Source of the DNA: a bacterium | GTDB lineage: Bacteria; Zhuqueibacterota; Zhuqueibacteria; Oceanimicrobiales; Oceanimicrobiaceae | NCBI GenBank assembly: GCA_046757025.1 | Contig: JBHHXN010000041.1 | Location: 1 to 35,380, forward strand | Direction: 5' to 3' | Length of the DNA stretch: 35,380 nucleotides | Shown here: positions 10,644-23,366 of the stretch, one piece after another | Layout of the letters: each line of letters begins with the position of its first letter | Position numbering within the stretch: the first letter of the stretch is position 1 | Translations under genes and position numbers: made by a program | Notes under the pieces: model-generated | What the model was told of the DNA's origin: nothing | The model's input: the letters and a program-made list of their open reading frames with translations, nothing else | Database searches by the model: none

Positions 10644-10781
10644 ATTATCAATCGCCATGCAATTCTTCTAAGTAAAAGCATTCCAGAAATTCAGCCGTGT
10701 CCCATCTTCGAAATAACTGAGAGATTGAAGTTCGAACAGTAATCTTACTAAGTATTAGTTGGAAAATACTTGAGTAGAATT

Positions 10782-11768
10782 ATGAGTAAGACTCAATTCA
10801 TTGGGAGTGATCCCAAGATAAAAGATATATTACAGTTGGTTCAACACGTAGCTGATACCGATGCCACCGTTTTAATCACCGGAGAAAGCGGGACGGGTAA
10901 AGAACTGATTGCCCGCATCCTTCATGAGGATAGTTCGAGAGCCACAAATCCATTTATTGCAGTGAACTGCGGTGCATTAACAGAAACACTACAGGAATCT
11001 GAATTATTTGGCCATGTGAGAGGCGCGTTTACCGGTGCTTCTTCGAAAAAAATCGGCAAGTTTGAGGCAGCACATCGGGGGACTATATTTCTGGATGAAA
11101 TCAGTGAAATGAGCAAAGTTCTGCAAGTGAAATTGCTCAGGATCCTGCAATCCGGGGAGTATGCGCCAGTCGGAATGGCATATAATTGTTATTCGGATGT
11201 ACGCATTGTTGCGGCGACCAATCAAACGCTACAACCTCTGGTCGAAGCTGGTGAATTTCGACAGGACCTGTATTATCGGTTAAACGTCATTTGTCTGGAC
11301 CTGCCTCCGTTGCGAGAGCGCAAACAAGATATTCCATTGATGTTAGACCATTTTCTGAAAATCTTCAAAAACGTTTATGATAAACCTGAGCTTCAGATAT
11401 GTCCTGAAATTGTGGATGTATTGATGCAGTACGATTATCCAGGTAATGTTCGGGAATTGGAAAATATTATACGCAGGTCGATCATTTTGTGTTATGAGGA
11501 CCGGATTTCGTGCCAATATTTGCCTTCATACATTTTTGAAGAAAGGATTCATACACTGGAAGAGCACCCTAAAGACTTTCATCAGGCAAAAGCACAGGTG
11601 GTGGAAGAATTTGAACGAGATTATTTAACCTCAAAACTCAAGGATTGTGGCGGTATTATCAGTCGGGCAGCCGAGAGCGCAGGCTTGAGTGAACGCAACT
11701 TCCATGAAAAGATGAAGAAATACGGCATTCGAGGAAAGGCCTTTCGAGCAGAAGTGAACGCCGGTTGA
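10782..11768 (+). CDS. Sigma54-dependent enhancer-binding protein without N-terminal sensory/receiver domain
   Basis: Walker A GESGTGKE, ESELFGHVRGAFTGA, FLDEI, RQDLYYRLNV, YPGNVRELEN, C-terminal Fis-type HTH; start is ATG 10782 or TTG 10770. Confidence 0.93.
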   Translation: MSKTQFIGSDPKIKDILQLVQHVADTDATVLITGESGTGKELIARILHEDSSRATNPFIAVNCGALTETLQESELFGHVRGAFTGASSKKIGKFEAAHRGTIFLDEISEMSKVLQVKLLRILQSGEYAPVGMAYNCYSDVRIVAATNQTLQPLVEAGEFRQDLYYRLNVICLDLPPLRERKQDIPLMLDHFLKIFKNVYDKPELQICPEIVDVLMQYDYPGNVRELENIIRRSIILCYEDRISCQYLPSYIFEERIHTLEEHPKDFHQAKAQVVEEFERDYLTSKLKDCGGIISRAAESAGLSERNFHEKMKKYGIRGKAFRAEVNAG

Positions 11769-11951: not shown

Positions 11952-11966
11952 TGGCACCAATGTTGC
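11952..11966 (+). promoter_or_regulatory. Sigma54 (-24/-12) promoter
   Basis: TGGCAC-CAATG-TTGC, an exact match to consensus TGGCAC-N5-TTGC, between the activator gene and the downstream cluster. Confidence 0.85.
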
Positions 11967-12770: not shown

Positions 12771-15140
12771 TTGATGAAAACAATAAAAGAGCACCTGGAC
12801 AGGGCAAGTACTCATCAGGAAAACGAGTCGCCATTTCTTACAAGTGAAGAATTCGTGCCTGTTCAAGAAGAAGGTAATGGCTCTGTGACCATAGCATCCA
12901 ATATCAGAACTCCATTCGCGTCAATTTATGAGTGGCCTGGTAATGAAAATATGATGAGCGAGGAAGACCTGGAGGTATCCAGATTCGTAACCTCCTTATA
13001 TGATGAGGAATTTGACTCCGCTGTGTATCAGATAATGGAAGAAGCCTCACAACTCATTTCTGAATATGGGGAGAACCAGGAGGTCACAGCGGAACATTTG
13101 CTGAATGAGCATTTTGACTCACTGGCTACTGAGACAGAAGCAGCAATGGACTTCATAGCTGAGCACGCCGAACAGCTTGAGCAGGAAACGATTACGGAAT
13201 CAGAACTTGAAGCCATGGTAAACGACTGGCGGGTGGGTCGGACACCACTAACTCCAGGTCAACAGGAATATTTCTGGGGTTGGGCCAAGAAGGCAGTGAA
13301 ATGGGCCAAAAAGAAAGTCAAGGCGGTCGGGAAATGGGCTTTGAAGAAAGCTCTCCGCAAATTGAAAAGACTGGTAAGACCGGTTCTGAAACAGGTCTTG
13401 AAAAAAGCCATCAATTGGCTGCCATCAGCGTTACGTCCTATAGCTCGGCGTCTCGCCAAAAAGATTTTGAAGAAAGTCTCGGAGGCCGAGTTCGAGGATC
13501 CTGAGTACGAAAATCTCTCGGAAGTGGGTGCCATTCAGCATGAGCTGGATTTGCAATTAGCCCATCTGTTGTATTCGGAAGACGAAGAAGAGCAGGACGC
13601 AGCGGTTTCTGAGTTTATGCTTGAGGCCAATCAAGGTCCCGAGGATGCCGTCGTAAGGCTGCAGTCTGCCCGCGAAAGGTTTATCCAGGAAATCAGTGAG
13701 TTGGAAGATGAAGCAGACGTTGAGCCAGCGGTCGAACGATTTATTCCAGCTCTTCTGCCAGCTCTCAAATTAGGGCTTAAACTCATCGGTCGCCGCAAAG
13801 TTGTCAATTTCATCGCCAAGTATGTCGCCAAATTTATCAAGCGATTTGTGGGTAGAAAGTATGCCAAACGATTGTCTCGCGCAATCGTGGATGCCGGTTT
13901 GCGTTTGATTCATCTTGAAACGAACGAAGCAGACGAGCTCGAAGCCGCTGCCAGCGCAGTTGCAGGGGTGGTTGAAGACACGGTTCGAGAAGCTGCCGGC
14001 TTACCAGAACATATTCTCGAGGATGAGGCGCTGTTGGAAGGATTTCTGCTCGAAGCGTTTGAAAAAGCCGCCGCAGCAAACCTGCCGCAAGTGCTTCCTG
14101 AAAGTGTTTACGAGGATAGACCCGAACTGCGTGAGACTTCGCACCGCAAAGGCGCCTGGGTGATGCTGCCCAAAGGCAAACGAAAGCGTTTTAAAAAATA
14201 CACAAAGGTTATCGACGTCGTGATTACGCCGCATGCAGCCAAAATGATTAAGACGCATGGTAAACGTTCGCTCTCGACCTATTTTCAAGAAAAATTGAAA
14301 TTGCCAGCAGGTAAAATAGTAAAAGCGCGGCTCCATCTTTTTGAAGCCATGGTAGGCACGCGCTTAAGCGACATCAGTCGAAACGACCCAAGCCTTTCAT
14401 CTCATCTGCCAGTCGGCCGCGAATACGAGCACTTGCACCCCTTGACTCCCGAAGCAGCTGCCATGCTTTTAAATGAACCCGGCCTCGGAAGAGAGTACCA
14501 GGAAGCGTATCATTCCGACCGGACGCCAGGCAATGATGGCGGCAGGCGCGTCTATTTTATTGAAACAGAAGACGTACCTTACCTCGCGGGTAAAAAACAA
14601 CTTCCTCGCCTGTCTGAAGCCAGGCTCACGTTTGATTTTCCGGCAAACGAGGTCAAGATCTTCGCTTTTTTAAATGAAGGACGGGCGCAGGAAATCGCAC
14701 GAAAAATTCGACGTCAGGAACCTCCTGGGCAAATTTTAAACACGGTGTCTTCTGTCATGCGCAGTTTAATCGATGAAGCATTGAGCTGTAAAGTTCACCG
14801 CCATACAAGGGTGTTGCATGCGTCGCTGGCACCTGAAGCTATGATCGGAAATGGTTTGGGCCGGCTGCCTGCAAATATGCGTACGAAACTCCCTGTAACA
14901 ATTACAGAATGGGTGGGGCGAGGTCTGAAAAACTTTTTTTCCGAAAACGCTCAAGACTTCGTTTCGGCCACGGAAGACGAAGCAGATGGAGTAACGATGT
15001 TGATGACGATATCCGATCCTCCTGGTCTTGTAAATCTTCGCAAGATGATTGCTGGTGCCTCAACCCAATTTAGCCGCAACGGTATTCATGGGCAGGTTCA
15101 AGTGAACGTAAAGGTAATAGCCGGTTTTTACTATGAATGA
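12771..15140 (+). CDS. Hypothetical 789-aa protein: SPF/acidic leader, alternating acidic tracts and cationic amphipathic segments, C-terminal globular region
   Basis: Long ORF with AAGGAGG RBS (TTG 12771 or ATG 12774); charge-segregated composition is visible in the translation. Confidence 0.85.
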   Translation: MMKTIKEHLDRASTHQENESPFLTSEEFVPVQEEGNGSVTIASNIRTPFASIYEWPGNENMMSEEDLEVSRFVTSLYDEEFDSAVYQIMEEASQLISEYGENQEVTAEHLLNEHFDSLATETEAAMDFIAEHAEQLEQETITESELEAMVNDWRVGRTPLTPGQQEYFWGWAKKAVKWAKKKVKAVGKWALKKALRKLKRLVRPVLKQVLKKAINWLPSALRPIARRLAKKILKKVSEAEFEDPEYENLSEVGAIQHELDLQLAHLLYSEDEEEQDAAVSEFMLEANQGPEDAVVRLQSARERFIQEISELEDEADVEPAVERFIPALLPALKLGLKLIGRRKVVNFIAKYVAKFIKRFVGRKYAKRLSRAIVDAGLRLIHLETNEADELEAAASAVAGVVEDTVREAAGLPEHILEDEALLEGFLLEAFEKAAAANLPQVLPESVYEDRPELRETSHRKGAWVMLPKGKRKRFKKYTKVIDVVITPHAAKMIKTHGKRSLSTYFQEKLKLPAGKIVKARLHLFEAMVGTRLSDISRNDPSLSSHLPVGREYEHLHPLTPEAAAMLLNEPGLGREYQEAYHSDRTPGNDGGRRVYFIETEDVPYLAGKKQLPRLSEARLTFDFPANEVKIFAFLNEGRAQEIARKIRRQEPPGQILNTVSSVMRSLIDEALSCKVHRHTRVLHASLAPEAMIGNGLGRLPANMRTKLPVTITEWVGRGLKNFFSENAQDFVSATEDEADGVTMLMTISDPPGLVNLRKMIAGASTQFSRNGIHGQVQVNVKVIAGFYYE

Positions 15141-16386
15141 GTACGCTCAAATTATTAAGAAGCAATTGACCCGTCAGGTGCAGCATTGGGCATTTGCTGC
15201 GTCGAGGTTGCAGAACCTCGAAGATTACACTTCGCCCGACGCCTGGCAAGAGCTTGAGCGCTATCTTGGCGTGGCCATTCGGAGTGAGTTGTCGCGTCAT
15301 ATTGACCGTCTTGCGCGGCAAGGACAAAAGCTTTTCTTGAATCTTCGAAGTATCCAATCGTTGCCAGCGCTTGAGGACTTCGGCAGGCAGTTATTGAATT
15401 TCCGAACCAGCTATCTTAGAACGGAAACTGCTGTGGATTTTTACGCAGATGCCATCAATACCAGAACGAACAAGGAGATCGGCGCATTGCTGCGAGCGTG
15501 TGATTTTATCGCCAGAAAAAGTATGACCGATCTCCTGGATAAACTCCACAAGCCAACACCGCCGGTTCTCTGCTATCTCGATGACGGAGTGGGCGCTTCG
15601 ATTCTGAAAGCGGGGCTGCGATTCCCTGGCGGTCCCATTGAAAACCCGGCCGCAACCATTAAAGTTGTTCATCACAATCTTTATCGCCCGACATCGCTCA
15701 TCCACGAGGCGGGTCACCAGGTTGCTCACATACTCGGGTGGAATCGTGAACTGGCTGCAAGTTTAGAACAAGCCCTTGGCAAATATGACAGTGAAGTAGC
15801 GGAAACCTGGGGAAGTTGGGCGTCTGAGATTGCGGCAGATACCTTTGCTTTTGTTCATACGGGTTACGGTTCGGTTGCGGCGCTACATGACGTTGTGGAT
15901 GGTGGTGCGAGCAAAGTCTTTCGATTTTTGCCCGGAGATCCACATCCAATCGCTTACATAAGAGTCTTGTTAGGAACGAGTATGTGTACAGCGCTCTGGG
16001 GCAAAGGGCCATGGGATGAGCTGGCGCTTGCCTGGCAACACCGATACCCACTTAATCAAAAACAGTTGCACGTTTTCGAGTTGCTTAATAAATCGTTGCC
16101 GCTGCTTCCAAAAGCAGTGGAAACGTGTCTGATGACGCCAATGCGATCATTTGGTGGACAAAATTTGATTCAGCATATAAATCCCGAGCGAGTTAAGCCG
16201 GAAAGTCTGGCTGAGTTGGAACGCAGCGCCGGCAAAGCGCTTTTTCATTCGGAGCACTGGGTGCAGACTGAAGCGCTACGATTGTTAGCACTTACTGCTT
16301 TGAGATGCGCTACATTACCCGACGAAGCCTTATCAACATACCGCCAACAGAGGGCCTGGATGCTCAAGTTAGGCGGCATCATTTAA
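15133..16386 (+). CDS. Putative zinc metallopeptidase (HExxH, gluzincin/M48-like motif order)
   Basis: SLIHEAGHQVAH, downstream WASEIAADTFA and GDPHP; ATGAATGA 8-nt overlap with the upstream gene. Confidence 0.7.
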   Translation: MNEYAQIIKKQLTRQVQHWAFAASRLQNLEDYTSPDAWQELERYLGVAIRSELSRHIDRLARQGQKLFLNLRSIQSLPALEDFGRQLLNFRTSYLRTETAVDFYADAINTRTNKEIGALLRACDFIARKSMTDLLDKLHKPTPPVLCYLDDGVGASILKAGLRFPGGPIENPAATIKVVHHNLYRPTSLIHEAGHQVAHILGWNRELAASLEQALGKYDSEVAETWGSWASEIAADTFAFVHTGYGSVAALHDVVDGGASKVFRFLPGDPHPIAYIRVLLGTSMCTALWGKGPWDELALAWQHRYPLNQKQLHVFELLNKSLPLLPKAVETCLMTPMRSFGGQNLIQHINPERVKPESLAELERSAGKALFHSEHWVQTEALRLLALTALRCATLPDEALSTYRQQRAWMLKLGGII

Positions 16387-16427
16387 TTAAACGAAGGATT
16401 TTTTTATCTCACGAAAGGAGAGCGAAA

Positions 16428-16631
16428 ATGGCTAAAGATGAAACCAAAGTCAAGACTGTACCCACGGAAAACGTTATTCACACCAGCGCACGGGAGGATC
16501 CGCCAGACCCGAAAGCACAGGCCATTGCTGAGTTTATAAACATAAAAGCCGCGTTGAGTGGCGCCGATCCGGTCTGGCCAATTCCGGAATTAGATGATAA
16601 ATTGCGGCCAGGATTTAGCGGCCAGAGTTAA
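16428..16631 (+). CDS. Small hypothetical protein, 67 aa (MAKDETKVK...)
   Basis: GAAAGGAG RBS at 16413-16420 before ATG 16428; fills the gap in the operon. Confidence 0.65.
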   Translation: MAKDETKVKTVPTENVIHTSAREDPPDPKAQAIAEFINIKAALSGADPVWPIPELDDKLRPGFSGQS

Positions 16632-16668
16632 TTCAAAAGTTTCTGATAATGGAAAGGAGAATGTAATC

Positions 16669-17850
16669 ATGTTTAGAAGAATAGCACGAGGAATTGCGGG
16701 CGGTGCAAACACCTTATTCAAACTGCACCCACTCGAACTGAGTGCCTTACTGGAAGCAGCATGGGAATTCAGGGTTCATCAATCACCACTTCAGGCTGGA
16801 CACCCGAATCGTCGCAGCGACACACCTGAACTGCCGAGGTATATCCTCAACCTCTTTGATTTTTTTTCTGGCGGGAATACAACAGGTAATTCACTGAACG
16901 CCGTTGTGCAGAGAATGTTTGGCGAGGTCAGGTGGCACCACCTGATCTACGCTTACATGATCGAGAATACCCGCGTGTATGAGATTTTTGAAAAAGTTTT
17001 GTTTGAATACCTGCACGGCGAACGTCTCGGCCCGCCACTTCCGGATGCTCAGCACTGGCTTCGAAACACGGAAGAGTTGTTTTACAGAGATCCGGCACCG
17101 TTTTCTATCTACGGCGTGGTGAGCGATGTTCGTCCGGATAAGCGCGCGTCCCGGCGTAACGCTTACTACCGAATGTTTGGAATGGAGTTGAATCATGGCG
17201 CAGGCAAAGAAAAGACTTACAATTATCAAAAACCCGAGGTTGCTAACCGCGAATTTGTAGCGACATTTGAGGCTTTTCTACGTGAGGTTTGGATTGGCAT
17301 TTCCAATGTTGGCAATGCAAGCGGAAGCAATCCCACTGATAATGCTGCCATCGCAAACTTGGCGCGTCAGCTCAGCGATATGCTGAGAACCCGCCGGCAA
17401 AACGGCAACCTGTCCCGGCAGGAGTTTTGGTACGTCGCGATGATGTCCTGGTTCCATCTGACCATAGAACCCACAAATCCACCGCTGCCAATTATCGCCT
17501 CTTTGCGCGCTGAAGCACCGAGAGAAGATCAAGTCTTGTTCAAAGTGGCCGAGCGTGTAGGACAGCCGGTCTACAGCCGGGCCTATGATCTGTTTCAACT
17601 TGCCGAGCCCATGTCAAGAATTCTAACTCAGATCGAAATGGAAACTTATAATAATCCAGCAGCTGTGCCTGCACTTTATACTGAAGCTACTAATGGCCCC
17701 GAAGCGGACATGCGAACCATCATCACACACTGGTCGCTGGCAACCGGCAAAGACATGAAAGTTAGAAAAGGCTCGTCGATTTCGCAAATCAAGACCAGTG
17801 GCAATGGGCAAGCCGCAAAGCCAGAGAAGATGGTACTCGAAGCGGTTTAA
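16669..17850 (+). CDS. Hypothetical 393-aa cytoplasmic protein, no assignable family
   Basis: GAAAGGAG RBS before ATG 16669; globular composition with motif-like blocks WHHLIYAYMIENTR, RRNAYYRMFG, SWFHLT. Confidence 0.8.
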   Translation: MFRRIARGIAGGANTLFKLHPLELSALLEAAWEFRVHQSPLQAGHPNRRSDTPELPRYILNLFDFFSGGNTTGNSLNAVVQRMFGEVRWHHLIYAYMIENTRVYEIFEKVLFEYLHGERLGPPLPDAQHWLRNTEELFYRDPAPFSIYGVVSDVRPDKRASRRNAYYRMFGMELNHGAGKEKTYNYQKPEVANREFVATFEAFLREVWIGISNVGNASGSNPTDNAAIANLARQLSDMLRTRRQNGNLSRQEFWYVAMMSWFHLTIEPTNPPLPIIASLRAEAPREDQVLFKVAERVGQPVYSRAYDLFQLAEPMSRILTQIEMETYNNPAAVPALYTEATNGPEADMRTIITHWSLATGKDMKVRKGSSISQIKTSGNGQAAKPEKMVLEAV

Positions 17851-17968
17851 TCGTTGAACACGCAGTAAAAAGTATCCAGACAGATTCAATAGTTGACAAG
17901 ATCCACTCATTTTCTTGTTAGTCACAATATCTTGTAAAAAATACAAATTCATATTGGAAAGGTGAAAA

Positions 17969-20461
17969 ATGTCCTCCAGAAAACATTTAACGTTTCAATC
18001 CAAAAAGCCAATTGTGACAGATATTTCTCCATTTATGACTGAGCTGCTGATTGACGAGGAAGATCAAGAAAATTCTGGCGGTCGAATTGGAGCGTTTAAT
18101 CAGAATCAAATAGAACGATCTATTCTTCCTGAACAGGCCTTCAAAGAGGAAGCGAGTACTGGCGCCGAATCTGACGAGTTTGACATTTCTGATGCGGAAT
18201 GGGATGACGAAGATATCATTGCTGATGAAATTATGGAAACAGAATATGCATCTGAGGATGACGACGATGACGAAATGGTTTCAGAAGGAAAGTGTTGTGA
18301 ACAATGCAGGGCTCGACAAAAAGAGGCAGAATATGAATATTTTTATGAAGATTTAGAAGATGAAGATTTGGAATCAGAGTACGACGATGAACATGAATTT
18401 TTTTCAGAAACTGACGTAGACCACCTGGATGAAGAACAGGATTGGGATGATGAGGATGAATATGAAGAAAACGAAAGTCTGGAGTATGATGAGTGGGAAT
18501 CCGAATTTGAAGAAGACGAACTTGAGGATTTGATTGAGGATCCGGAAGAATACTACGAAGAACTGGATGACGAGTTTTGGGAGGCTGAAATCCCTGCTGA
18601 AGCATTAGAGCAAGAAATTCATAACGACACTTTCACAAGAGTTCGTAATCAACGTAACGGCTTTCGAAGAGATTGGGAGATTGAAGCTGCAATGCAACTG
18701 CACTGTGACGATCAGACGCCACTCGATTATAAAGCGCTCTATGAACTGTTATCTGGCACTGGTCGCAATCGTCGCGAAGATTGCAATGATAATGATTGGG
18801 ATGCATTCAGGGACATGCGTCGATGTGCCAGTTGTGCTGCATTTACCAGCGGCTTCGGCTGGCGTCGCATGACCTGGGACAAAGACTCACATGCAATCCG
18901 TGAACAGTTCCCATACGTGTGGCTAACTGTCGAACCGCGTCGATACCGACGAAGAGAACAACGTCTCAATAGAAGGGTTGATTTCGCCACCGACATGATG
19001 GATGATTTCTACTTTGATGATGACCATTTCACTCTGTTCTGCAATAAATACCTGTTGCGAGGTCGCAAGCGCTGGGACAGTTGGCGTTGTAACGAGGCTC
19101 CTGATATCAGGCGCCTTCTGGTGGCCACCAAAAGGATAGAAGGAGTTGATCCTGATGGAATCAAAAAAGCGTATAAAGAAGACATACGATTAAACCGCGT
19201 CAGGCGAAGGCATCTCAGGGACCTGGTGCGAGATATCCAAAAGGGTCTGGTAGATTGGTCTCGCAGCAGGCGAGCGAGGCAGCGTAACTTTAGGGCGATC
19301 TTTCCAATCAGGCGCATGTACGAAACCTTGCAAAGGAGGGGCGTGTTCTCTGGATTTACCAAAGGGAACAATACACATGTACTGGACCTTAAACCCAAAG
19401 TTTTTATTCGCTCTTTGCGTTCTCGCTACCACTTGCGGGAGACTTCATTACGGCGTTTAGAAGAAATTCGTCTGTTGGGGATACGACGACTCCGAACCTT
19501 ACGAAATAACGCCAGAATGCGTTTGAGGGATAATACATTGAATCCAGCTTTACAAAACGTGGCTCAGAATTTTGTAAGAAAAGCAACGGGCTGTCTCAAT
19601 TACAGCCTGGTGACCTCCCGGGCACAGTCCCAATTGCAGGCGCTACGCTCTGGCAGGCAAATAACACGTAACCGGGTTAGGGCATTGCGCCCGCGAAGAC
19701 GTCCGCGTATCCGCCGGCATCGAGAGCTTCAAGAACGCAGGGTTATCGCGGAAACACTCAACAAGCTCTATCACGAACTGGCGATGGAAGCAAATAACAG
19801 TGGACTGTTAAATTCAATCTCAGGAGTATCAACAAATGGAGGGCAGTTTTGGGTCAGGCAAATCGAGGCAGCAGGTAGCGCAGGTCTCGGACTTTGGTTT
19901 GACCAGGCACGGGAACACTATGTGCCCCGCTCTGGACGTATCGTGCGTGACGATTTCTTGATTGACACGCTGGATGCCAGCGGCATGTTCACGCCCGATG
20001 CCTGGGCCTGTATTTCAGAGGATCAGCAAACTCACCAGGCGCAGCCGGACATAAACAAGCTATTCTACGCTTCCCTGACCAATGAGGTCCAAATTGAGCA
20101 GGGGCGAGAACGAGCTTTTCTGAGAACGATCGATAATTTGAAAGACCAAATCGCTCGGACTTCAAACTCAGGCAGAAGACAAAGACTACAAACCCGGCTC
20201 ACTGGTGCAAACTTCGTATTTGGAGAGTACCGGAAAGCATTGATAATGATCGCGAAAATAAAAGAAAACCAGATATTAAACGGCATCGATCGCGAAGTGT
20301 CGGCTGCTCGCAGAGCAGGGGAATCGGCGCCACAATGTCAGAATTGGGCCTGGAAGCCAGCAAAGCAAGGCAAAGGTGAGAAAGCCATGACTCTGCTCAG
20401 GCAGAAATTCGGGATTCAGTGTAAGTCAGGTGCGGCAGCGACAACCTCCACTTTTGTTTAA
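17969..20461 (+). CDS. Hypothetical 830-aa protein: SPF motif, ~215-aa Asp/Glu-rich leader, extremely Arg-rich body
   Basis: AAAGGTG RBS; composition of the translation. Confidence 0.8.
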   Translation: MSSRKHLTFQSKKPIVTDISPFMTELLIDEEDQENSGGRIGAFNQNQIERSILPEQAFKEEASTGAESDEFDISDAEWDDEDIIADEIMETEYASEDDDDDEMVSEGKCCEQCRARQKEAEYEYFYEDLEDEDLESEYDDEHEFFSETDVDHLDEEQDWDDEDEYEENESLEYDEWESEFEEDELEDLIEDPEEYYEELDDEFWEAEIPAEALEQEIHNDTFTRVRNQRNGFRRDWEIEAAMQLHCDDQTPLDYKALYELLSGTGRNRREDCNDNDWDAFRDMRRCASCAAFTSGFGWRRMTWDKDSHAIREQFPYVWLTVEPRRYRRREQRLNRRVDFATDMMDDFYFDDDHFTLFCNKYLLRGRKRWDSWRCNEAPDIRRLLVATKRIEGVDPDGIKKAYKEDIRLNRVRRRHLRDLVRDIQKGLVDWSRSRRARQRNFRAIFPIRRMYETLQRRGVFSGFTKGNNTHVLDLKPKVFIRSLRSRYHLRETSLRRLEEIRLLGIRRLRTLRNNARMRLRDNTLNPALQNVAQNFVRKATGCLNYSLVTSRAQSQLQALRSGRQITRNRVRALRPRRRPRIRRHRELQERRVIAETLNKLYHELAMEANNSGLLNSISGVSTNGGQFWVRQIEAAGSAGLGLWFDQAREHYVPRSGRIVRDDFLIDTLDASGMFTPDAWACISEDQQTHQAQPDINKLFYASLTNEVQIEQGRERAFLRTIDNLKDQIARTSNSGRRQRLQTRLTGANFVFGEYRKALIMIAKIKENQILNGIDREVSAARRAGESAPQCQNWAWKPAKQGKGEKAMTLLRQKFGIQCKSGAAATTSTFV

Positions 20462-20484
20462 AACAAAATTCACAAGGCAATTAA

Positions 20485-21759
20485 ATGCTTTCTGATAAAG
20501 AAGATCTCGATCTGAGCATAAAATTTGTTACTCCATTTCTCAATGAATCAATTTTCGATGAAGAAGAATATGAAAATCAGGTAATGTACAAGTACGAGCC
20601 TGACAATCAATATGAAAGCCAATCCCGGTCTGTAATCGAGCCTGCGGAAGAAGAAACTAGTGAAGCGGAGGCTGAAGAATATTATGAATTCGAAGATGGG
20701 TTTGATAATGAGTTTGTAGATGAGCAATTCGAAGAATACAAAGATGAATTCGAGGAATTCAATGAGGATTTTGATTATGAGGTGGAACTCCAGAGAGAGG
20801 ATTGGGAACAGGAATGGGCTGATTTCCAATTAGAAGATTCAGATTCGCTCAAAGAAGTCAAATCTACGATGCAATCTATTCTAAAAGCTAAAACACCGTC
20901 AGAGAAACGGATAAATCAACTAAAACAATTATTCGAGGAAAAGGTGCCACTGTTTGATTCCCGGTTGATCCTGAGGAAACTGATTAATAATACCAATGAA
21001 GGCCGGCTTCTTAAGAAGTGTGTTCCTCAATATTCTCCACGCCGCAGACTGCTTCGCCTCCTGTACTGGAGAACAAAAGGCGCAGACATTACGAAACGAG
21101 GGGAGATTTTCAGCAGAAGGCTAAAGAAATTACGGGCGAAAGAATCAACAAAGTTAATATGGCCCACGAAAAAGAAATACTGGAAAGAGATGACCGCGTA
21201 TGAAAAAAAAGTCATACGATCATCACATGCCAGCGCAACTATTAGAGCCGAAGCCATGCTAATCGCAGCTAATATTTATGCGAAGCAACTAGATACGCCA
21301 GCCGCCGCCAGCGTTTACTATGAGAAAGCAGTCGGGCTCATACGAAACGGGCAAGCCTATTCCTCATTGAGCGCCTCTGACAGAGAGCTCTTTATAAGGG
21401 AAATCACCTCACGAATCCAGATGATAAAGAAACATTTGTTGCAACAATCAGAAAAACCGACTGCAAGCTCCCTTGCTGAATGCCGAAGTGGTGCTGCCAG
21501 CGATTATTTTATGTCAGGTTATATGGAAGATGCAGTAGCCGTATTTAAAAGCATCTTGAAAATTGACGGCCTAAAATTAGATAATTTCGAAAGGCTACAT
21601 GCGTTGGTTAAACTGGGCGATTTTTACAAAGAATCTGTTCCTGCAGCGGCTTTGTATTATTATGAAAAATATCTTGAGTCAGGCTTGCTCCATGGTGATT
21701 CGAAACAATCTTTAAAAAAGGCAATAACTCGACTGAACAAGCGTGTTGACAGTCCATAA
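20485..21759 (+). CDS. Hypothetical 424-aa protein: TPF motif, ~120-aa acidic leader, basic middle, TPR-like C-terminus
   Basis: AASVYYEKAV, AVAVFKSILKI, ALVKLGDFY...AALYYYEKYL TPR-like helices. Confidence 0.75.
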   Translation: MLSDKEDLDLSIKFVTPFLNESIFDEEEYENQVMYKYEPDNQYESQSRSVIEPAEEETSEAEAEEYYEFEDGFDNEFVDEQFEEYKDEFEEFNEDFDYEVELQREDWEQEWADFQLEDSDSLKEVKSTMQSILKAKTPSEKRINQLKQLFEEKVPLFDSRLILRKLINNTNEGRLLKKCVPQYSPRRRLLRLLYWRTKGADITKRGEIFSRRLKKLRAKESTKLIWPTKKKYWKEMTAYEKKVIRSSHASATIRAEAMLIAANIYAKQLDTPAAASVYYEKAVGLIRNGQAYSSLSASDRELFIREITSRIQMIKKHLLQQSEKPTASSLAECRSGAASDYFMSGYMEDAVAVFKSILKIDGLKLDNFERLHALVKLGDFYKESVPAAALYYYEKYLESGLLHGDSKQSLKKAITRLNKRVDSP

Positions 21760-21785
21760 AGAAGCAATCAAGGATTATTGAAATT

Positions 21786-22892
21786 ATGCAAAAAAGTGAA
21801 TTTAGTTCGAGGCAGAAGCTGTCTGGAAATCCCTTCCTGCATGCTTTTGAAGCAATTCAGAATGAATCCATCGAACAACTTAATGATGAATATTATAAAC
21901 TCGACGATGAGTTTGCTGATGAAGGGTCAACTGGGAGAAAGGGGATATATTCGGAATCCCCTTTCATTGCGATGGTTCAAGAAGGAGTAGAGCTTGAATC
22001 AGAAGTGTTTGGTGCCAACCAAATGATGTGGGTGCGCAATCCCCTGGCAGTTCCGAATCGCTGGATCTGCCGTCTGGACATAAGATACGAAATCACACCG
22101 TGGAGTGGGGGGCGAAGGCTGCGGGGCTCCGGAAGAGGAACCGGTACTCTAATCGGGAACCGTCACGTTTTGACCGCGGCACATAACATCCAGATGTACG
22201 ATCCAGTACGTAAAAACTATCTCAGAGCTACCAGGATCATGGTCACACCGGCCCATAATGGCAGCACTTCGCCGCCAATTATGGGAGTAGAAGCAGATCT
22301 ATCCAGGTCAAGAACACCGCGAGGTTGGCAAGTGGCTCGTAGAATCGCTGCAAACGGTGCAGCCAATATGGCTGGAGAAGTCGCGACCAACCGCCACGAC
22401 TACGCGTTACTCACTTTGAGAAGGTCCATAGGACAAACGCAAGTACGAGTGCTGGGCAGTCGACTGGGCTACTGGGGGAACAACGGATCGAACGGTATAG
22501 CCCACTTTCGACGCCAGAATCCGACCGTTTTAAAAGACAACAAAGTCTTTGTCGCAGGCTATGGTTATGATAACTGTGTGAGGACGGTCCGCCGAGTGAC
22601 TGCAACTCCAGGAATCCCCCTGGGCAGTCAGTTAATTGCGTCGGGTCGGCTACGACTTTTCCGAGTCAGAGGTAAAAACAGCATCTTTATTGGTAGAAGC
22701 ATGGCCCACGACGTAGATACTTGCGGCGGTCAAAGTGGTGCGTCAGTCTGGATTGAGCGGAATGGAGTGTTTGACTTGGTAGGAATTCATACGGGTGCAG
22801 TCAGTCTCTCCAATGGTGTGCGAGTAAACCACACCGTCCGTGTCACCCGCGAATTTATGAGGAACGTTCGATATTGGCAAAGGCACACTTAG
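21786..22892 (+). CDS. Trypsin-fold serine protease, V8/glutamyl endopeptidase-like, with acidic pro-leader
   Basis: GTGTLIG, VLTAAHN (His), HDYALL (Asp), DTCGGQSG (Ser), VGIHTG; predicted mature start ELESE|VFG. Confidence 0.88.
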   Translation: MQKSEFSSRQKLSGNPFLHAFEAIQNESIEQLNDEYYKLDDEFADEGSTGRKGIYSESPFIAMVQEGVELESEVFGANQMMWVRNPLAVPNRWICRLDIRYEITPWSGGRRLRGSGRGTGTLIGNRHVLTAAHNIQMYDPVRKNYLRATRIMVTPAHNGSTSPPIMGVEADLSRSRTPRGWQVARRIAANGAANMAGEVATNRHDYALLTLRRSIGQTQVRVLGSRLGYWGNNGSNGIAHFRRQNPTVLKDNKVFVAGYGYDNCVRTVRRVTATPGIPLGSQLIASGRLRLFRVRGKNSIFIGRSMAHDVDTCGGQSGASVWIERNGVFDLVGIHTGAVSLSNGVRVNHTVRVTREFMRNVRYWQRHT

Positions 22893-22958: not shown

Positions 22959-23366
22959 ATGAAAAACAAAAATCTATCGTCAAGAATATTGACAACATTA
23001 TGTGGTTTGCTGACCGCAGTCTTGTTGATGGGCTCGCTTTGTACCAAGCCCATCGATCTGGAGCCATTCAAAGAACTAGCCCGAAATGCCGATTGTGCAG
23101 AGATCAGCAATCGTCTGTTTCTGATCGATAAGAAAATGGTATTCTGGGAGCGCCTGGGCAATTGTCCCGATAATAGTTTTGCGCAAACGCTTTACGGCAA
23201 AACGCCGGACGACGTATTGTGTTCGCGCTACGATTCCATCGGCGGTCCTCTGCAATCCTGCAACGATCAATCATACCAGAATATGTTTCAAACCATGGTG
23301 GATAACCTTAATCAACCTGATTTAGGACTTGGGCCAGGCCATGATGTTGAACCGATCTCATTTTAA
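22959..23366 (+). CDS. Small exported Cys-containing protein/possible lipoprotein
   Basis: MKNKNL + hydrophobic stretch ending GSLC; four further Cys; GAGG RBS. Confidence 0.7.
   Translation: MKNKNLSSRILTTLCGLLTAVLLMGSLCTKPIDLEPFKELARNADCAEISNRLFLIDKKMVFWERLGNCPDNSFAQTLYGKTPDDVLCSRYDSIGGPLQSCNDQSYQNMFQTMVDNLNQPDLGLGPGHDVEPISF

Follow-up and report, generated by a model that had tools for sequence, protein, structure and literature searches.

We analysed a stretch of 35,380 nucleotides (nt) from a bacterium of the Zhuqueibacterota (Oceanimicrobiaceae), comprising positions 1 to 35,380 of the forward strand of contig JBHHXN010000041.1 in assembly GCA_046757025.1 and hereafter called the window, in which a conserved block of four genes, A (789 amino acids, aa), B (417 aa), C (67 aa) and D (393 aa), is followed by variable cargo genes. 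The subject of the analysis is an N-terminal leader of one or two S-P-F-like motifs and an acidic tract, carried in the window by A and by three cargo proteins. The genes and features concerned are the following.

12771..15140, forward strand: core gene A, 789 aa from TTG or 788 aa from the ATG at 12774, found upstream in 61 of 61 and 48 of 48 loci
12828..12839, forward strand: SPF motif 1 of A (SPFL, S20), with P 92% and F 98% conserved in 50 homologs
12909..12920, forward strand: SPF motif 2 of A (TPFA, T47, starting at nt 12909), with P and F invariant in 50 of 50 homologs
13272..13478, forward strand: first cationic amphipathic helical block of A, residues 168 to 236, by hydrophobic moment and charge
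13740..13910, forward strand: second cationic amphipathic block of A, residues 324 to 380, by charge and amphipathicity
15133..16386, forward strand: core gene B, 417 aa, a predicted soluble zinc metallopeptidase by its motif set in 64 homologs
16428..16631, forward strand: core gene C, 67 aa, a small open reading frame (ORF) of variable sequence and conserved position, with an AGGAG ribosome-binding site before ATG 16428
16669..17850, forward strand: core gene D, 393 aa, all-alpha, of no named family and with no transmembrane segment, by homologs and model
17969..20461, forward strand: cargo 1, 830 aa, with SPFM, a 216-aa acidic leader ending in LEQE and a passenger from 18617 that has two homologs
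20485..21759, forward strand: cargo 2, 424 aa, with TPFL, an acidic leader of about 110 to 120 aa and a basic helical passenger of no assigned family (matrix rank 2)
21786..22892, forward strand: cargo 3, 368 aa, with NPFL, SPFI, a leader ending in LESE and a V8-like glutamyl endopeptidase domain from 22005 (Pfam Trypsin, E 1e-5)

An earlier note on this DNA had drawn attention to an [S/T/N]PF-hydrophobic motif near the start of four proteins, and a recheck of the sequence found all of its motif positions exact. Besides the two copies in A, whose residues are counted from TTG 12771 (an ATG follows at 12774), the motif is present as SPFM in cargo 1 (S20, nt 18026), as TPFL in cargo 2 (T16, nt 20530) and as NPFL in cargo 3 (N15, nt 21828), the last with a second copy, SPFI (S58, nt 21957). 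It is missing, as the note had also said, from the 417, 67 and 393-aa proteins of the window. The description of the four bearers as otherwise unrelated did not hold, because the 789-aa protein is the conserved core gene A and not an unrelated cargo. The motif lies well above background: among the 3,816 ORFs of at least 150 aa in the window's own genome (called with a simple ORF caller, so that this background is approximate), [STN]PF[LM] at about residues 10 to 26 occurs in five, four of which are these genes, and a position matrix trained solely on cargo of other genomes ranked the four window leaders 1, 2, 19 and 79 in the same set, cargo 2 taking rank 2. The window leaders contain 22–41% aspartate plus glutamate and have net charges of -10 to -78, compared to +14 to +50 for their passengers.

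Two sets of loci were used for comparison: a GTDB set of 80 of the 127 matching loci, fetched with the D alignment as query, and a held-out set of 80 metagenome loci fetched with B as query, of which 21 were dropped because their B shared 90% identity or more with a training or earlier sequence, leaving 59. Where there was room (at least 4.5 kb upstream), A and B preceded D in 61 of 61 loci (60 GTDB loci and the window), all 58 loci in which the three genes are intact kept the order A-B-D, and the divergence of A, B and D was correlated (Spearman 0.56–0.78 over 58 loci, among which kin are not independent). Among the held-out loci with room, all 48 assessed for A had it, and all 39 assessed for D had it downstream of B. 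The GTDB loci span Bacteroidota, Cyanobacteria, Actinomycetota, Acidobacteriota, Proteobacteria, Myxococcota and Bacillota, among others, and the block also occurs in the archaea Methanosarcina (L009) and Methanothrix (L022). Its spread is patchy: among the window's relatives it was found in 2 of 61 genomes, one being the window genome and the other a Candidatus Zhuqueibacterota bin of the same class (locus L036). D has 1,846 homologs and was not found in the viral contigs or plasmids searched; A to D gave no match above threshold in Pfam, NCBIfam or PHROGs, and PADLOC returned 0 families for them at E 0.01, so that no known anti-phage defence system was recognised. Word-matching literature searches found no description of the block, although members of it could appear in the supplements of PMC3482391 and PMC12352652. 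Core genes are split across frames in L025, L032, L050, L052 and L078, where assembly error and decay were not distinguished.

Across relatives, the leader takes the form [ED]-S-P-F-L, about 27 residues, a second S-P-F and then an acidic tract, and the first gene after D, which differs between loci, usually carries it. In the held-out loci, it was present on 32 of 34 first genes after D compared to 3 of 43 upstream control ORFs, which bears out a co-occurrence with the core genes that the earlier note had raised; the three positive controls may be extra cargo. By core family, the motif was found in 50 of 50 A homologs, 0 of 64 B homologs and 4 of 120 D homologs, and the leader profile gave one weak internal match in 59 relatives without D. 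A family cargo-leader profile of 50 positions in the two-motif form, searched against 1.84 billion proteins, matched 182 clusters, including some of its training sequences. Among its best 150 matches, 143 lay within the first 40 residues and none was protein A, while the 102 long matches fell into 68 passenger groups. The orphan cargo that the note had envisaged elsewhere in the genome did not appear, as a first hidden Markov model of the leader gave nothing significant in the window's own genome, window genes included. The two-motif profile gave 28 matches in 50 core genomes, mostly its own training sequences; a single match fell on another contig (G076:C252), where it stands behind a truncated VanY gene at the contig start, and it is probably part of the same locus. 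The SPF pair is kept with almost no acidic tract in the cargo of L020, L029 and L053, and in three polyproteins (L010:11080-14484, P0250 and P0293) a double-SPF leader lies inside the chain behind a flavin amine oxidase domain, so that the tag need not be terminal.

Together, these data identify the leader as real and system-specific. Because it persists while the passengers change, goes with a single gene block, is confined to A and the cargo, and occupies the Sec-signal site of relatives, we are highly confident that it is the dedicated signal of the A-D block. The earlier proposal of a dedicated signal is thereby supported by the comparative tests, with sorting, chaperone binding and cargo loading as its possible roles. 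What the note missed is that the family form is a double motif, that core gene A is the obligate bearer and that the leader is very likely removed.

Where a family could be named, the passengers are for the most part peptidoglycan hydrolases and V8-like proteases, and they lack signal peptides. Pfam assigned a family in 30 of 45 locus cargo, placing 14 of the 45 in a wall-acting set (amidase, VanY/M15, M23, SLT, PG-binding or DUF2272) and trypsin-like domains in 10, with phospholipase D, PhoD and amine oxidase among the others. In an overlapping set, 61 of the 102 long profile matches were run on Pfam, and a family was found in 32; 24 belong to the wall-acting set (3 by DUF2272 alone, which we take to be a CHAP-like amidase) and 5 of the 61 are trypsin-like. 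Signal peptides were judged by a hydrophobicity heuristic (maximum over 11 residues within the first 35) rather than by SignalP, and signal-bearing controls score 2.3–3.3 on this scale. A hydrophobic signal-like N-terminus was found in 1 of 150 leader-bearing profile matches, and the N-terminus of cargo 3, with a maximum of 0.48, has no Sec signal peptide by the same heuristic. The cargo of Methanosarcina (L009) and Methanothrix (L022) contain SLT, VanY, M15 and PG-binding domains. Since these archaea make no peptidoglycan, the targets of their wall-hydrolase cargo would be bacterial.

In the window itself, the passenger of cargo 1 has two homologs in the length range searched, both of which start with a Sec-type signal peptide and align from residue 217, just after LEQE; a profile search of the passenger against solved structures found nothing. 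The passenger (18617-20458) and the two homologs conserve E-x-E-A, D-D-x-Y, L-R-x-R-K-R and E-x-Q-I-E, motifs reminiscent of CYTH/VTC tunnel enzymes, and Pfam gave no match even at E 5. For cargo 2, only a sub-threshold TPR match (E 0.065) was obtained, a search of 167 genomes from the phylum yielded no convincing homolog, and its passenger was not found in plasmids. For cargo 3, the best solved relative is V8 protease (1qy6), with which it shares the Thr190- and His213-equivalent positions and the chymotrypsin-type catalytic motifs, and its closest homologs also carry SPF leaders. There are also V8-like proteases with neither SPF nor signal peptide (P0128-P0130, P0133-P0138, P0142, P0143, P0148 and P0149), most of which start just after an E-hydrophobic-E-x-E-like site, some behind an ELE/EFE-rich leader; they possibly represent a sister system with another tag, though some of the records may be 5'-truncated.

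The acidic tracts had been described as often ending in E-x-E. This stands for the junctions LEQE of cargo 1 (residues 213-216, nt 18605-18616) and LESE of cargo 3 (residues 70-73, nt 21993-22004), but not for WEQE of cargo 2 (residues 107-110, nt 20803-20814), where the acidic tract runs on past the motif and which has no independent support. Among 60 trypsin-like domains with a canonical mature start (24 further matches without one were left out), 27 start directly after E-x-E and 14 after E-x-E-x(1,2)-G, against an upstream E-x-E background of 4.3% per position. A cumulative-charge rule for leader ends proved too crude to test E-x-E on all cargo. In V8-type enzymes, according to excerpts of PMC5508998, the S1 pocket is formed only after the propeptide is removed. 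We conclude that the leader is probably removed at or near E-x-E.

Core protein B carries HEAGH (nt 15703-15717), EIAAD (nt 15826-15840) and DPHP (nt 15937-15948), and in its 64 homologs H191 is conserved in 64, E192 in 63, H195 in 64, E232 in 63 and H271-P272 in 64, so that the full gluzincin-type set of HExxH and a downstream Glu as third ligand is kept. We take this layout (HExxH, downstream ExxxD, conserved HP) to be M48-like, and M48 peptidases are the nearest named Atlas models, at template-modelling (TM) scores of 0.32–0.34. Unlike M48 gluzincins, B is predicted to be soluble rather than membrane-bound, and to the low TM scores is added the lack of a Pfam M48 match in all 64 members. 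B is a serious, if tentative, candidate for the enzyme that removes the leader. Most loci have a small ORF like C between B and D, in many cases encoding a short helix and, as judged by eye, a W-x-L-P-like end; in some (L022:9406, L023:1681 and L047:9534) gene C has a beta-rich C-terminal extension, possibly of Ig-like surface domains.

The structure model of D has a predicted local distance difference test score (pLDDT) of 72 and a predicted TM score of 0.72, and a hydrophobic 19-mer of at least 1.8 was found in 0 of 120 D homologs. With D as query, Foldseek returned no match at E 0.001 and the best fold-search Z was 5.7, which is not evidence of a new fold; profile comparison with solved structures found nothing and the Atlas search gave weak eukaryotic matches only. 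The scores against ClyA (Z 4.2, root-mean-square deviation 12.2, 134 residues aligned) and YaxB (Z 4.1, 18.6, 105 aligned) are within background. A complex prediction of B, D and zinc with A leader residues 12-62 scored 0.00 twice (controls not folded) and gave no answer. An encapsulin check found no Pfam or PHROG capsid family in the locus, and the fold searches with A and D contained no decisive match.

In protein A, the double SPF leader is followed by amphipathic helical blocks that are acidic and basic in turn, and the C-terminal region is alpha/beta. The block charges (medians -20/+15/-18/+6/-10) keep their sign in 50 of 50 homologs, and the first cationic block, with a hydrophobic moment of up to 0.91 and net +8 per 18 residues, aligns at net +8 to +35 in all 50. 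In the structure model (pLDDT 79.6), leader residues 8-59 fall below 50 and are thus predicted to be disordered. These features suggest a self-neutralised, membrane-active pro-protein. The fold search with A gave no Foldseek match and a best Z of 7.8 on helical bundles, with the C-terminal part barely tested, and is not evidence of a new fold; profile searches of A and B against solved structures gave weak coiled-coil or helical matches. In L193, a second A-like gene directly follows D (L193:6109), and a cargo of L013 (L013:11155-13809) matches part of the A profile; these observations raise the possibility that copies of A are a source of cargo. Among the core proteins of the window, the hydrophobicity of 19-residue segments never exceeds 1.21, which leaves no membrane span and no small transmembrane holin.

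The best reading of these data, and the one we favour on balance, is the export of antibacterial pro-effectors with removal of their leader. The double SPF motif and acidic tract would serve as a shared leader that addresses A and the cargo to a cytoplasmic machine of B, C and D, which would cleave the leader at E-x-E and set the enzymes free outside the cell to attack other bacteria. That the cargo act outside the producer is likely. Processed A, its cationic amphipathic helices freed from the acidic spacers, might open a membrane for exit or entry, a step we put forward tentatively. Because no core protein spans the membrane, exit would be by lysis, vesicles or a released particle and not by a standing channel. 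More speculatively still, A to D could constitute a new class of delivery machine, unrelated to the numbered secretion systems or to phage-derived particles, in which D and C would capture double-SPF leaders, B would strip the leader at E-x-E, and processed A would open the membrane and carry wall hydrolases, proteases and lipases into neighbouring bacteria.

Several observations weigh against the export reading. The window leaders are divergent, such that the two-motif profile from relatives misses them. In the GTDB set, at least one motif was found in only 47 of 73 evaluable first genes after D (two motifs in 34; 7 loci had no evaluable gene). About 13 of the 80 loci, several of them in Nocardia, Rhodococcus, Mycobacterium and Paenibacillus, have the core and no leader-bearing neighbour, and in the five core-only genomes searched A was the sole leader match. 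As core-only loci exist and A is always tagged, A is the obligate client and cargo are optional add-ons. The replacement of a signal peptide by the leader rests on two homologs of cargo 1, in which a spacer of 15-25 residues precedes the aligned region, leaving the cut site unfixed. A Glu directly before the mature start was found in 24 of 27 trypsin-like domains bearing His213 and in 1 of 18 without it; it tracks the protease's own specificity, so that self-activation, without B, could explain the junctions of the His213 clade. In 12 of the 18 domains lacking His213, E-x-E is retained two or three residues further upstream, an argument for a shared site, with the limit that the two clades are not independent samples. 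Family libraries and hydrophobicity revealed no ATPase or membrane channel in the block, the three window cargo genes have no immunity gene between them, and the Methanothrix record (L022) is a metagenome bin.

The rival that survives best sees in the leader an inhibitory propiece and a docking tag for the protease, not an export address: the block would mature A as its real product, and the cargo, having copied the tag, would be held inactive and activated at lysis. Consistent with this account, the window leaders roughly offset their basic passengers in charge (leader/passenger -78/+50, -37/+25 and -10/+29), the core occurs without cargo and with A always tagged, and internal leader copies stand behind amine-oxidase domains. 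However, net acidic passengers are common, e.g., in L034 (-37), L040 (-43) and L042 (-34), the cargo of L020, L029 and L053 are almost without an acidic tract, and the leader takes the place of a Sec signal in cargo 1 relatives, so that we consider this rival unlikely.

Less likely again is a self-directed role in lysis or wall remodelling, comparable to a holin and endolysin, in which A would open the producer's own inner membrane and the hydrolases would reach its own peptidoglycan. The abundance of wall hydrolases without signal peptides, the lack of evident immunity genes in the window and the regulators that often adjoin the block would fit this role. It is at odds with the peptidoglycan-hydrolase cargo of the methanogens (L009, L022) and with cargo that vary by locus in a weapon-like manner and count proteases, phospholipase D, PhoD and amine oxidases among them, and A lacks a holin-like transmembrane segment.

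We give a slightly lower chance to the block being an accessory loader whose leader targets cargo into an extracellular contractile injection system (eCIS) encoded elsewhere. The eCIS marker PF14065 is enriched among core-bearing genomes (28 of 52, compared to 9 of 28 core-less relatives), the window genome is positive (C32), and eCIS cargo use N-terminal signals according to excerpts of PMC11297309. The marker is, however, not required: 24 of 52 core-bearing genomes, among them the RefSeq genomes of L009, L028, L057, L060 and L063, which are not known to be incomplete, have no PF14065 match, with the caveat that this is a single marker and that some genomes are incomplete. In addition, the eCIS signals described in those excerpts show no sequence conservation and carry a slight positive charge at residues 6-21, unlike the acidic, motif-based leader. 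Finally, chance or low-complexity convergence on unrelated acidic N-termini, as might be suspected from so short a motif, from two single-copy window cargo and from a family profile that misses them, is refuted by the genome-wide count (four of five occurrences at the locus), the held-out loci (32 of 34 vs 3 of 43) and the 182-cluster profile search, with the invariant PF in a disordered part of A as a further argument, and we assign it a negligible probability.

We compared the system with published ones, drawing on excerpts of the papers cited. Like polymorphic toxin systems (PMC3482391, Zhang et al. 2012), it joins exchangeable enzymatic passengers to a constant N-terminal trafficking part, includes a linked peptidase for processing and is scattered over many phyla and some archaea, and variable effector domains on a constant N-terminal element are indeed found here (68 groups among 102 long proteins). 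None of the routes given in those excerpts, namely the type II, V, VI and VII secretion systems (T2SS, T5SS, T6SS, T7SS), PVC, TcdB/TcaC, PrsW and MuF, is recognisable in the A-D block, and the passengers differ in being mostly wall hydrolases and proteases with no paired immunity gene evident. Toxicity to competitor cells is suggested by the domain content of the cargo. The S8-PTS (PMC9424270, Li, Tan, Zhang 2022) is alike in that toxin genes are linked to a separate peptidase gene proposed to free the toxin domain. As far as the excerpts describe it, it has a subtilase, Sec signal peptides, a BetaH domain, immunity genes and Gram-positive hosts, whereas here the peptidase is of HExxH type, the cargo lack signal peptides and there are three further core genes; no S8 family was found in the locus and the cargo N-termini are not hydrophobic, so the locus does not fit that class.

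The cargo signals of eCIS/PVC particles (PMC11297309, Danov et al. 2024) likewise are disordered, hydrophilic N-terminal signals that replace Sec export; the leader differs from them in its fixed double motif, its strong acidity, its length of 70-220 residues and its presence in genomes without the eCIS marker. Precursors of V8-like glutamyl endopeptidases (PMC5508998) share with cargo 3 the catalytic motifs, Thr190/His213 and the Val start after the propeptide. In the V8-type enzymes described there, a signal peptide and a propeptide are present, and in cargo 3 the SPF-acidic leader replaces both. With no small transmembrane holin among the window core proteins, the block is also unlike holin-endolysin or type 10 secretion. 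Archaea encode modular peptidoglycan hydrolases of which only 32% have a known signal peptide, and killing of bacteria by them is documented (PMC12352652, Strock et al. 2025); this source names Sec, Tat and possibly contractile systems, and its main text contains none of the words Methanosarcina, Methanothrix and operon. The A-D block may account for some of these signal-less archaeal hydrolases.

Upstream of A lie a sigma-54 activator gene without a receiver domain (10770-11768) and, ahead of A, a receiver-like ORF (12042/12060-12500), with one candidate site between them.

11952..11966, forward strand: possible sigma-54 promoter, TGGCAC-N5-TTGC, between the sigma-54 activator gene and the receiver-like ORF

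Sites of this type occur at 0.69 per 35 kb genome-wide, which makes the one at 11952 weak, and a sigma-54 site was found within 1 kb of A in 1 of 83 other loci. These counts hint that any sigma-54 control is locus-specific and not part of the conserved core. A sigma-54 activator also lies upstream in L019, L056 and L058, and other loci have other regulators. The promoter and terminator scan was at the level of shuffled sequence, and the window had no Rfam match. The last cargo gene is followed by a lipoprotein-like ORF of 135 aa (22959-23366), a possible immunity gene for which no homolog turned up in the fetched loci. A stretch of low G+C content (34%) at window positions 7001-8000 coincides with a PIN-domain gene (7604-7990), and on another contig of the same genome the marker PF14065 occurs together with a tail-sheath-like ORF (G000:C32:9900-14192).

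The A-D block is thus a conserved unit of four genes that seems to serve a class of leader-tagged enzymes of its own. Its D family counts more than 1,800 clusters, and neither Pfam, NCBIfam, PHROGs nor PADLOC has a name for the block. The idea is open to direct tests through the tag, the predicted cut site and B's catalytic Glu. If export is true, the block would be a new route for conflict between bacteria and of archaea against bacteria, it would explain some peptidoglycan hydrolases that lack signal peptides, archaeal ones included, and it would offer a short, mutable tag for directing cargo. If A to D are in addition a new delivery machine, this machine would be in use from cyanobacteria and actinomycetes to methanogenic archaea, with a 50-residue tag portable to any cargo.

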